DNA of 42,330 bases from positions 1-42,330 of the forward strand of contig JAKLKB010000084.1 of the NCBI GenBank assembly GCA_023150835.1. The letters run 5' to 3'. The stretch comes from Myxococcota bacterium (GTDB taxonomy: Bacteria > Myxococcota_C > UBA6777). Positions within the stretch are counted from its first letter, which is position 1. Every line of letters starts with the position of its first letter. Both the position numbers and the translations under genes were made by a program. Below are positions 10,796 through 42,100 of the stretch, piece by piece. Under the pieces are notes generated by a model. The model worked only from the letters and a program-made list of their open reading frames with translations. It was not told the DNA's origin and made no database searches.

Positions 10796-13105
10796 ATGAA
10801 GCTCCGTCTCGTTTCCCATGTGAGGCGTGTGGCCTGTTGGCTTGGCTTGGCCTTGTTGTGCGGTGTTCCTCAACACGCCTACGCCCAAGGCTTTTTGATC
10901 CCAACCCAACAAGCGATCGCACCGTTGTCCCTTAAATCGCACCGCGTGATGGTCAAGATCCAAGGCCGTGCCGCAAAAACAGACGTCACACAGGTCTTTG
11001 TCAACCACACCGATCAGCTTTTGGAAGCGACCTTTTTGTTCCCACTGCCCAAAGATGCGACCTTTTCCAACTTTGTGCTGTACATCAACGGCAAGCCCAC
11101 CCAAGGAACGGTATTGGTCAAAGAAAAAGCCCACGCGATCTATTCGTCGATTGTTCGGACGATGCAAGATCCCGGATTGATCGATTATTTGGGCGGGAAC
11201 CTTTTTCGCGCACGTGTATTCCCTATCCCCCGACGCGGCGAGCAAAAGATCCGCATCTCCTTTACACAGATCATCCCGTATGAAGGCGGTTTGCACCGTT
11301 TTGTGTACCCGCTCAAAACCCCTCGTCGTGTTTGGCGCACCGATCAGGATTTTACGATGGCCGTCCAATTGCACAGCAGCGCGCCGATCAAAAACATCTA
11401 TTCCCCAACGCACAAAGTCTCCATCCGCCGCAAAACCGATCGTCACGCGATCGTCGGATTCGAAGAAGACAAAGTTGCGCTAGATCGGGACTTTGTGATG
11501 TACTACTCGGTCTCCCCCAAAGATGTCGGGATCGATGTTCTTGTGCATCGAACGGGCGAACAAGACGGCTATTTCTTGTTGATGGCCACCCCGAAGACCA
11601 CGTTTGCCGCCAAAGAACTCAGCGGCAAAAACATCACCTTTGTTCTCGATACATCGGGTTCGATGCGTGGTGAAAAGATGAAATGGGCCAAAGTCGCCTT
11701 GGTGCGCTGCTTGAAAAAGTTAAATCCCAAAGATCACTTTAACGTCGTGCGCTTTTCGACGGATGTCGAAGGCTTGTTTGGTGAGTTGCAGATCGCAAGC
11801 GAAGCCCATATCCAACAAGCCGTCAGCTTTGTAGAAAAAATGGAAGCCGCAGGCGCGACCGCCATCGAAGAAGCGATGGCAAAAGCCTTGGAGCAAAAGC
11901 CCCGTGGAGACGGGATTAGCTTGATCGTCTTCATCACAGACGGCCATCCCACCGTCGGCGAAACCTCCCCTGAGATCTTGGTCAAACAAGCCAACGAGCG
12001 CAACAAATGGAAGTCACGCATCTTCACCTTCGGTATCGGTACCGACATCAACATCAAATTGCTCGATCAGATCGCACAAAGTAGCGGAGCCACGGGCGAT
12101 TATGTTGAACCCAACAAAGAGATCGCCACACGCATCGACACCTTTTATGACAAAGTACGCTACCCTGTGTTGAGCGATATCCAATTAACCACCAGCGGAG
12201 CCGTACGTTTGCGCGAGATCTATCCGCTGCGTTTGCCTGATCTCTTCCGTGGTGGGCAGCTTTTGGTGATGGGCCGTTATCGTGGAACGGGACACGCCGC
12301 GATCAAGCTGGCAGGAAAAGTCAACGGTGCGGCCCGTCAATTCGTGTACGAAGCAGCCTTTGCGAAAGAAAGCAAAGAAAACGATTTCATCTCGCGCTTG
12401 TGGGCGCATCGCAAAGTCGCTTATCTGCTCGATGCGATCCGCATGAAAGGTGAACTTCCCGAACTCAAACAAGAAGTCATCCATCTCGCCAAGCAATTCG
12501 GCATCGTCACTCCCTATACCTCTTATCTCGTCGTCGAAGAAAAAGACCGATGGCGACTCGGTGAGGATGCACAGCCCCAAGCCACGGGTACGCCCTCTCC
12601 CACCACGCCCTCGATCGCAACGCCAAAAACCGCTTGGAATCAACGCTCTCGAAGAGGATGGGGAGGCCGAGGTGCTGCAAGCGACGCAGAGCGCGGACCC
12701 AGCGGAGGAGCCCCCGCCCGCGAACCTGCCGCAGCACCGATGAAAAGCGAATCGCTCGCCAAGACCGATGGGGACGAAGCCGTCCGTGTCAGCCGCCAAC
12801 TGCGAAAGATGAAAGAAAGCAAAGTCGCTCAAAAAGGCGGTAGCGTCCGGCTGATCCAAGGCGTTCGCTTTGTTTGGCAAAGCCATCAATGGGTCGATGC
12901 CCGCTACAAGAGCGAGATGAAGACGCTCAAGATCAAGTATCTCAGCGATCTATACTTCCAAGTCTTGGCCCTCCGACCTGATCTGCGCCGCGCTTTCACC
13001 TTGGGCGCACGCCTTGTAGTGGTCGTCGGTAAAAATCGCGCCCTTGTGATCGGCACCGAAGAAGACGCCTCCACCCCCACACTTCGCAGCTTTTTGCGCA
13101 AGTGA
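10796..13105 (+). CDS. Secreted VIT + vWA domain protein (inter-alpha-trypsin inhibitor-like)
   Basis: AGGAGG RBS; signal peptide ending AYA; VIT-type TQVFVN..LEATFLFPLP; MIDAS DTSGS, FITDG, FTFGIG; IVTPYTSYLVVE. Confidence 0.9.
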   Translation: MKLRLVSHVRRVACWLGLALLCGVPQHAYAQGFLIPTQQAIAPLSLKSHRVMVKIQGRAAKTDVTQVFVNHTDQLLEATFLFPLPKDATFSNFVLYINGKPTQGTVLVKEKAHAIYSSIVRTMQDPGLIDYLGGNLFRARVFPIPRRGEQKIRISFTQIIPYEGGLHRFVYPLKTPRRVWRTDQDFTMAVQLHSSAPIKNIYSPTHKVSIRRKTDRHAIVGFEEDKVALDRDFVMYYSVSPKDVGIDVLVHRTGEQDGYFLLMATPKTTFAAKELSGKNITFVLDTSGSMRGEKMKWAKVALVRCLKKLNPKDHFNVVRFSTDVEGLFGELQIASEAHIQQAVSFVEKMEAAGATAIEEAMAKALEQKPRGDGISLIVFITDGHPTVGETSPEILVKQANERNKWKSRIFTFGIGTDINIKLLDQIAQSSGATGDYVEPNKEIATRIDTFYDKVRYPVLSDIQLTTSGAVRLREIYPLRLPDLFRGGQLLVMGRYRGTGHAAIKLAGKVNGAARQFVYEAAFAKESKENDFISRLWAHRKVAYLLDAIRMKGELPELKQEVIHLAKQFGIVTPYTSYLVVEEKDRWRLGEDAQPQATGTPSPTTPSIATPKTAWNQRSRRGWGGRGAASDAERGPSGGAPAREPAAAPMKSESLAKTDGDEAVRVSRQLRKMKESKVAQKGGSVRLIQGVRFVWQSHQWVDARYKSEMKTLKIKYLSDLYFQVLALRPDLRRAFTLGARLVVVVGKNRALVIGTEEDASTPTLRSFLRK

Positions 13106-13177
13106 TACGAAATCCGAGAGATGTATACACAAAGGGGAGTATGTAGACGCCCGACTGTTGGGCAGCTACAGGGGGCA
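13106..13177. mobile_element. Family A MITE copy 2, truncated at the GGGGGC palindrome
   Basis: TACGAAATCCG starts immediately after the TGA stop; colinear with copy 34876-34988 up to CAGGGGGC, then similarity stops. Confidence 0.7.
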
Positions 13178-13191
13178 TTTGATCCAACGAA

Positions 13192-13508
13192 TACGATATC
13201 CGAGTGATCTGTGATCGAAGGAGAGCGCGAAGACGCCCGATTGTTGGGCAGTCACAGGGGGCTGCCCCCATAGGCGTTAGGTTAAGCGCTTGTTGGCCCC
13301 CCACCCCAGCCCTCCCCCGTGAACAGGGGAGGGAGCGAAAGTCGGAAGCAGCGGGGATGTTGTTTTTTCGTGACGCACGCTGTATGCACGAGACGCAGAC
13401 GCTACCCAAAACGGCGATCATCCTCGACCCTCCGGTGTTTCCACCTTAACAAGGCGCGTATGGGGGCTGCCCCTATGTTTTGCGATCACACACCCTGCGG
13501 ATTTCGTA
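13192..13508. mobile_element. Family A MITE copy 3, interrupted by a family B MITE
   Basis: Removing 13269-13462 and one GGGGCTGCCCC copy leaves a 112-bp element colinear with 36963-37074. Confidence 0.88.
13269..13462. mobile_element. Family B MITE (194 bp) with IS231-group/IS4-family-like ends and 11-bp target duplication
   Basis: Ends CATAGGCGTTAGGTTAAG and CTTAACAAGGCGCGTATG; flanked by direct repeats GGGGCTGCCCC (13258-13268, 13463-13473); body highly similar to 42101-42330. Confidence 0.85.
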
Positions 13509-13566
13509 GGATACCTTCCCCCCTGCCCCGCTGCTCCTGAGAGGCAACGCAGCAAAAGCTCCTTGC

Positions 13567-36962: not shown

Positions 36963-37074
36963 TACGATATCCGAGTGATCTATGATCGAAGGATAGCGCG
37001 AGGACGCCCTATCCTTGGGCAGCCACAGGGGGCTGCCCCTACGTTTTACGATCACGCTCCCTGCGGATTTCGTG
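36963..37074. mobile_element. Family A MITE copy 8 (112 bp)
   Basis: TAA-TACGATATCCG...CGGATTTCGTG-TAA; left TAA is the USP stop codon. Confidence 0.88.
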
Positions 37075-42053: not shown

Positions 42054-42100
42054 TACGAAATCCGCCCATTGTGTGACCGTAACGGTGTAGGGGCTGCCCC
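42054..42100. mobile_element. Family A MITE copy 9 (left part), interrupted by a family B MITE
   Basis: TACGAAATCCGCCCATTGTGTGA..GTAGGGGCTGCCCC, matching the start of copies 1 and 6. Confidence 0.85.

Follow-up and report, generated by a model that had tools for sequence, protein, structure and literature searches.

The IS231 subgroup of IS4 family insertion sequences is recognized by ends of the form CAT-------AA--TAA--- and by direct repeats of 10-12 bp. In the subgroup descriptions of PMC2266710, from which this signature is taken, the subgroup is almost exclusive to the Bacillus cereus group; target specificity is noted there for IS231 and none for ISH8, which has CAT ends and 10-bp repeats, and repeats of 10-13 bp are given for IS4. 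IS231A produces an 11-bp duplication at the target GGGNNNNNCCC, as stated in a passage of PMC2577343 citing Hallet 1994, and an IS231 copy located within the inverted repeat of Tn4430 is mentioned in PMC5604178, citing Mahillon 1987. Gene-less MIC231 cassettes, mobilized in trans by IS231 transposase, are described in PMC6199540, where a 'CA region' is placed beside their left end. Insertion into abundant palindromic repeats is known from further insertion sequences: ISPsy8, ISPa11, ISPpu9, ISPpu10, ISRm19 and ISRm22 are listed as targeting REPs (Tobes and Pareja 2006, PMC1525189), and ISRm22 is assigned to the IS4 family in PMC2266710.

Here we describe a MITE that is inserted into the palindromes of other MITEs. 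The window, i.e. the whole stretch of DNA analysed, comprises 42,330 nucleotides and belongs to the genome of an uncultured lineage labelled Myxococcota. The guest MITE is named B, the two host MITE families A and C, and a further repeat D; the source genome is designated G000 and a congeneric genome G001. The G000 assembly amounts to 7.56 Mb in 239 contigs (55.2% G+C, smallest contig 2,391 bp, 93% complete). We consider it probable that B is a transposase-less derivative of an IS4 family insertion sequence of the IS231 type, which inserted into older MITE hairpins. Features of the window are collected in Table 1.

Table 1. Features of the nested locus and related repeats in the window.
Feature	Position	Strand	Remarks
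MITE B copy	13269..13462	+	194-bp, non-coding; internal-deletion derivative of ~242-bp family
Left terminal inverted repeat of B, CATAGGCGTTAGGTTAAG	13269..13286	+	sequence reading, repeat finder, end-pattern search
Right terminal inverted repeat of B, outside-in CATACGCGCCTTGTTAAG	13445..13462	-	sequence reading, repeat finder, end-pattern search
Target-site duplication, copy 1, GGGGCTGCCCC	13258..13268	.	matches GGG-N5-CCC
Target-site duplication, copy 2, GGGGCTGCCCC	13463..13473	.	sequence reading, repeat finder
Host family A MITE, left part including left target duplication	13192..13268	+	positions 1-77 of empty copy, 90.9%
Host family A MITE, right part	13474..13508	+	13462-13507 equals positions 66-111 of empty copy, 91.3%
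Empty (paralogous) family A comparator copy	36963..37074	+	one among 313 near-full A copies
Truncated family A copy, left half, stops within its palindrome	13105..13176	+	78% identical in register to 13191-13262
15-bp end remnant of family D, adjoining truncated A palindrome	13177..13191	+	13 genome matches to D end
Target copy GGGGCTGCCCC of second B insertion, within another A copy	42090..42100	.	
Further MITE B copy of the canonical long form, truncated at the window/contig end	42101..42330	+	
			

The initial annotation, made from the letters of the window alone, described an element with CAT...TTAAG ends between 11-bp direct repeats, whose removal restores a 112-bp family A repeat colinear with an empty copy elsewhere in the window. 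This nested arrangement is confirmed base for base. The duplications are perfect, and both halves of the interrupted A repeat align with the empty copy at about 91%; the duplicated 11 bp are all that these alignments have in common, hence the halves are colinear. As in all our empty-site comparisons in families A and C, the empty copy is a paralogous one. Ends of B are inverted repeats with the outer form CATAGGCG...TTAAG. Read from outside inwards, the left and right ends of the window copy agree at 13 of 18 positions, and with the duplications included the repeat finder reports arms of 29 nt that are 79% complementary.

The nesting is no artefact of the source assembly, as contigs from two other public runs span the A/B junction: the contig of run X2 covers 13209-13282 with 0 differences and that of run X10 covers 13209-13276 with 1 difference. 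In run X4, one joint skips 13257-13461 (205 nt, corresponding to B plus one duplication) with 47 nt on its shorter side. This joint could represent either an empty allele or another A copy and was left uncounted. The locus lies next to the 3' end of a 769-aa ORF at 13105, with minus-strand ORFs further downstream. A scan of the whole window against Rfam returned no family at gathering score.

B is a repeat family of considerable size. BLAST of G000 with the window insert found 115 left and 127 right ends, and a degenerate 18-mer end pattern gave 192 matches, against 0 for the reversed control, a difference well outside chance. The motif-based census counted 314 B ends and 69 complete elements, which range from 140-661 bp and have their mode at 239-244 bp. 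Perfect duplications of 11 bp flank 48 of these 69 elements and a single mismatch is present in 5 more, the copies lacking a perfect duplication being 21 in total. Some copies have near-perfect 18-bp inverted repeats, and three internal forms (242-bp, ~340-bp and 661-bp) occur between the ends. No transposase gene is apparent in B; to judge by the size of the elements and by inspection of their sequences, B is non-coding, the 333-661-bp forms included. With inverted ends, 11-bp duplications, short multi-copy elements and empty sites all present, B is a MITE.

Unpaired ends of B cluster at contig ends: 45 of the 59 left and 50 of the 71 right ones lie within 300 nt of a contig terminus. Contig-end copies that run far enough are all colinear with the short element when read by eye. 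B thus breaks the assembly at about 95 of 478 contig ends, which makes it a main cause of assembly fragmentation and a warning for binning and synteny analysis; the true copy number is accordingly put at ~110-150.

The family is young, as judged from a median nearest-neighbour identity of 98.3%, with 42 of 66 copies having a neighbour at 98% or above. In family A, identity to the query copy is no more than ~78%, so B is younger than its hosts. Alignment of the family shows that the window copy is without 48 bp that contain the second of two GC-rich hairpins, and the window copy is therefore a deletion derivative of the ~242-bp form. Over shared columns it is 100% identical to G000:C10:6988-7166 (179 bp) and G000:C202:43586-43811 (226 bp). 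These three copies differ from each other by internal deletions, all situated around the second GC-rich hairpin, which suggests a recurrent, hairpin-associated deletion in B.

At three copies (G000:C123:10597-10764, C181:3633-3873 and C56:12430-12670) there are 3 mismatches between the 11-mers on either side. Two of the copies, C123 and C181, have 11-mers whose five middle bases are mutually reverse-complementary (GGGCGCTGCCC versus GGGCAGCGCCC), which looks like a flipped hairpin loop or like recombination between copies in opposite orientation.

Target choice of B is strict. The motif GGG-N5-CCC adjoins 277 of 313 B ends having enough flank in G000, while the 3,112 sites of this kind in the genome represent 0.04% of positions; among complete copies, 63 of 69 fit the motif. 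The position table widens the target consensus to GTG-GGG-Y-NNN-R-CCC, which is a palindrome. After in silico removal of B, 43 of the 69 sites fall into family C, 14 into family A and 12 remain unassigned, several of the latter being truncated A or C copies. The main target of B is thus the family C hairpin GTGGGGC-NNN-GCCCCAC, and family A, where the target core reads GGGGC(T/A)GCCCC, is a minor one. Orientation of B is random in both hosts (21 plus and 22 minus in C, 9 plus and 5 minus in A).

The same preference is apparent when all GGG-N5-CCC sites of G000 are considered by class: B adjoins 194 of 709 sites in C (27%), 36 of 1,170 in A (3%) and 44 of 1,233 others. Judging by their TTTTGTGGGG flanks, many of the 44 occupied 'other' sites probably belong to the unalignable 5' side of C. 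The motif is used almost only at the tip of a GC-rich palindrome. Self-complementarity over 17 positions averages 12.1 at occupied sites versus 8.5 at unused 'other' sites. In four cases two B elements are directly adjacent, spaced by exactly one 11-nt GGG-N5-CCC target copy; the duplicated target is thus reused, which agrees with the proposal in the initial annotation that the target is renewable.

Both hosts are abundant repeats in their own right. Family A has 313 near-full empty copies in G000. The three bases outside its ends read TNA in 248 copies on the left and in 246 on the right, and the two triplets are the same in 141 copies, compared with 49.7 +/- 6.4 (maximum 70) in 1,000 shuffles; given this excess of matching flanks, family A is a MITE that duplicates 3 bp (TNA) of its target. 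The repeats of family C measure ~170 bp, and at least 191 of them are intact (empty); an example is L031:1519-1690 (G000:C6). It contains the hairpins GTGGGGYNNNRCCCCAC and CAAGGGA-N6-TCCCTTG, and its 3' part is T-rich with the tail ...CGAACACGGGGTTTTTT. Stems of these hairpins vary with compensation, and such changes could reflect selection on DNA or RNA structure. In a subset of 20 C copies of ~170 bp with both ends recognizable, inverted ends of the TAGGACTTACGCAGTTG type and apparent 5-6-bp duplications were seen by eye.

The end of family D (ATTTGATCCAACGAATTCATTTCGAGTTC...) is found at 13177-13191 and in 12 further places in G000. In at least 6 places it adjoins A palindromes cut at CACAGGGGGC and continues into a longer conserved element, from which it follows that a second kind of element also inserts in the A palindrome.

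When compared with the published consensus ends of IS231, B shares CAT and TAA (positions 15-17) in both termini, while positions 11-12 are AG on the left and TT on the right instead of AA. A stretch of 50 kb of a Bacillus thuringiensis plasmid, taken for the same comparison, held no IS231 copy. The 11-bp duplication and the target GGG-N5-CCC are further traits common to B and IS231A. The earlier view of B as a non-autonomous IS231-like MITE thus stands as regards the missing gene, the CAT and TAA bases, the duplication length and the target rule, and falls short at positions 11-12. Like MIC231, B is gene-less and modular, with differing cargo between the same ends; a C-rich tract lies just inside its left end and may be set beside the 'CA region' of MIC231. 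Elements of the B family measure ~240 bp, whereas MIC231 cassettes extend from about 700 bp to 3 kb. The position of B in A and C hairpins resembles that of IS231 in the Tn4430 inverted repeat.

The differences from IS231 concern the host, which is an uncultured lineage labelled Myxococcota and not Bacillus, the copy number above 100 and the two deviating end positions. Since the IS231 subgroup is almost confined to the Bacillus cereus group, membership of B would mean a large taxonomic jump. With the REP-targeting insertion sequences B shares an abundant intergenic palindromic repeat as preferred landing site, but those guests are autonomous and their hosts are REPs, while B is a MITE inserted into further MITEs that have inverted ends and duplications of their own. 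B also resembles bacterial MITEs such as Correia, ERIC, RUP, Nezha and Chunjie in being short, non-coding and intergenic, with inverted ends, duplications and tens to hundreds of copies. Against the MITE examples covered in PMC10969869 and PMC3184786, its 11-bp duplication and strict palindromic target are unusual. The term 'nested' is absent from these two reviews, and the literature consulted on nested bacterial MITEs and IS231-type MITEs, with most subscription journals and ISfinder outside it, contained no account of the B family.

The transposition of B can be envisaged as follows. A DDE transposase supplied in trans would bind the CAT...TTAAG ends and excise B, which would then be joined to its target by cuts staggered by 11 bp and centred on GGG-N5-CCC. 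The palindromes offering this motif are supplied by two older MITE families, C as the main target and A as the target at the present locus. Repair of the staggered cuts would duplicate the 11 bp, each insertion leaving two fresh target copies; the window copy has since lost 48 bp internally.

Searches for the transposase covered several collections. The initial annotation had proposed to look for a full-length IS4 family element bounded by the same ends; none was found in G000, its relatives, or the metagenome, viral and run contigs searched. The PF01609 profile located 5 places in G000, none with B ends within 5 kb and none with CAT...TTAAG inverted repeats. Three of them were typed by NCBIfam, as IS982, as an IS4_2-type element with unrelated 15-bp inverted repeats, and as a weak IS1182/IS5-like protein. 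With the profiles NF033592 and NF033590, nothing further emerged from G000 than three contig ends bearing the 3' tail of another insertion sequence, which is unassembled and has an unrelated terminus. In six genomes of the phylum, PF01609 gave 13 new loci, none with B-like ends at up to 6 substitutions. A right-end pattern search of genome_contigs revealed no transposase-bearing B-ended element among the at least 54 loci listed; 28 of these, from unrelated taxa and lacking the flank motif, were set aside as chance matches. The 5 loci with B ends in metagenome_contigs are all non-coding, cut by contig ends and without transposase. Both matches in viral_contigs were due to chance, leaving no B-ended transposase element there, and Logan contigs of four public runs on the locus showed no longer B form among the loose ends listed.

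This negative result is weak evidence of absence, as the assembly holds no contigs below 2.4 kb and a collapsed insertion sequence of 1.5-2 kb would have been dropped from it. Such dropping is visible in G000, where the IS4_3-type multi-copy insertion sequence is missing from the assembly likewise. The transposase of B is either encoded on unassembled DNA or lost. The tail left by the dropped insertion sequence comprises ~30 codons from the 3' end of an IS4_3-type transposase gene and a common terminus (L063:1-140, L064:1-140 and L062, the end of G000:C161); in C169 it adjoins a family C copy. An apparently intact 1.2-kb IS4 family element without relation to B was also encountered at L002:1284-2506 (G000:C103); it has a 355-aa ORF (NF033591, 169 bits) and its 15-bp inverted repeats are perfect.

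The mode of B is best explained by an enzyme of the IS231 type, B itself being a candidate member of the subgroup. Among the competing explanations, the one to be taken most seriously, though we regard it as unlikely, is that B is moved by some other DDE transposase, from ISH8, IS4 or an undescribed group, and acquired its IS231-like traits by convergence. No transposase was found in the searched collections, positions 11-12 of the ends deviate from the IS231 signature, and the Bacillus cereus group is only distantly related to the host; moreover, as described in PMC2266710, CAT ends with 10-bp repeats and repeats of 10-13 bp are within the range of ISH8 and IS4, respectively. Convergence would, however, have to account for three independent traits of IS231 or IS231A at once (CAT plus TAA, 11 bp and GGG-N5-CCC), and for ISH8 the same source records no observed target specificity.

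Much less probable is the arrangement favoured by the initial annotation, in which B is dedicated to the family A palindrome as its safe harbour and a REP core, MITE A and MITE B form three layers. Both B copies of the window do lie in A, but genome-wide A receives 14 of the 69 complete copies against 43 in C, and the proportion of sites adjoining B is 3% in A versus 27% in C. The palindrome is internal to MITE A, being part of its own hairpin, and a search of G000 for RAYT transposases (Y1, PF01797) gave only two borderline fragments, at 23.8 and 22.9 bits, which leaves the REP layer without support. We attach practically no credence to the last explanation, that A and B constitute a fixed composite or a product of recombination between repeats instead of nested transposition. 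Spacers in these genomes are mosaics of several repeat families that differ wholesale between congeneric genomes, and a few B copies have mismatched or inverted flanking 11-mers. Yet 313 A and 191 C copies are empty, either host contains B in either orientation, and the direct duplication is perfect and exactly 11 bp long at 48 of 69 copies. The annotation had named random flanks, missing duplications and a composite of one orientation as outcomes adverse to its model; what prevails genome-wide is GGG-N5-CCC with 11-bp duplications, in either orientation.

Elements with the ends of B extend beyond G000. The exact end pattern occurs 47 times in the congeneric genome (control 0), with the same flank motif; the four remaining genomes of the phylum gave 0 matches. 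A MAG labelled Myxococcota contributes at least 26 B-end loci in genome_contigs, each either a short form or interrupted by a contig end, and metagenome contigs with B ends number 5. The locus itself is present in runs of 8 studies, all activated sludge, sludge, wastewater or aquatic metagenomes. In a relative, 567-bp forms (L099:1028-1595 and L095:1218-1784) combine B ends and GGG-N5-CCC duplications with a different non-coding cargo. This cargo itself holds GGGCGGTTCGCGAACCGCCC palindromes.

Genes flanking the compared loci are ~90-95% identical in G000 and G001. The G001 spacer corresponding to the present locus, L121:2314-2368 (G001:C37:20728-20782), measures ~55 bp, versus 418 bp in G000 (window 13105-13526), and contains no A, D or B repeats at all; the same holds for two other loci. 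Turnover of intergenic repeat content between the two species is complete. In 3 of 4 loci the spacer with all its repeats is either absent or rearranged, and those loci are therefore uninformative on B alone. At the fourth, the syntenic position of the B insertion of G000 is taken in G001 by a C hairpin without interruption; this C copy is a probable orthologue, with a differing loop sequence. A fifth G001 query returned flanks only, on different contigs.

The data suggest that an uncultured activated-sludge lineage unrelated to Bacillus shares the target rule of IS231A. A bolder extension, which we offer tentatively, is that IS231 targeting is old and conserved far beyond Bacillus, and that the gene-less B is a specialized and recently active parasite of MITE hairpin tips. 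Should this be true, the transposase would come from an unassembled or extrachromosomal element or would be too diverged for recognition, and the palindrome or hairpin itself would be recognized, since B hardly ever occupies the ~1,200 GGG-N5-CCC sites outside A and C. The family also provides a natural data set on target choice of IS4-type elements, with more than 300 ends, nearly 90% of them in one symmetric 11-bp motif. What it adds to the picture of MITEs is layers parasitizing each other; no new kind of mobility is involved.

Tandem arrays of 9-10-bp units were observed beside B or D remnants. The unit GTACGGAAA is repeated at the contig end of G000:C139 and at C129:~10260, and an array of CATTCCGTA, with a unit of about 10 bp, lies at C235:~173010.
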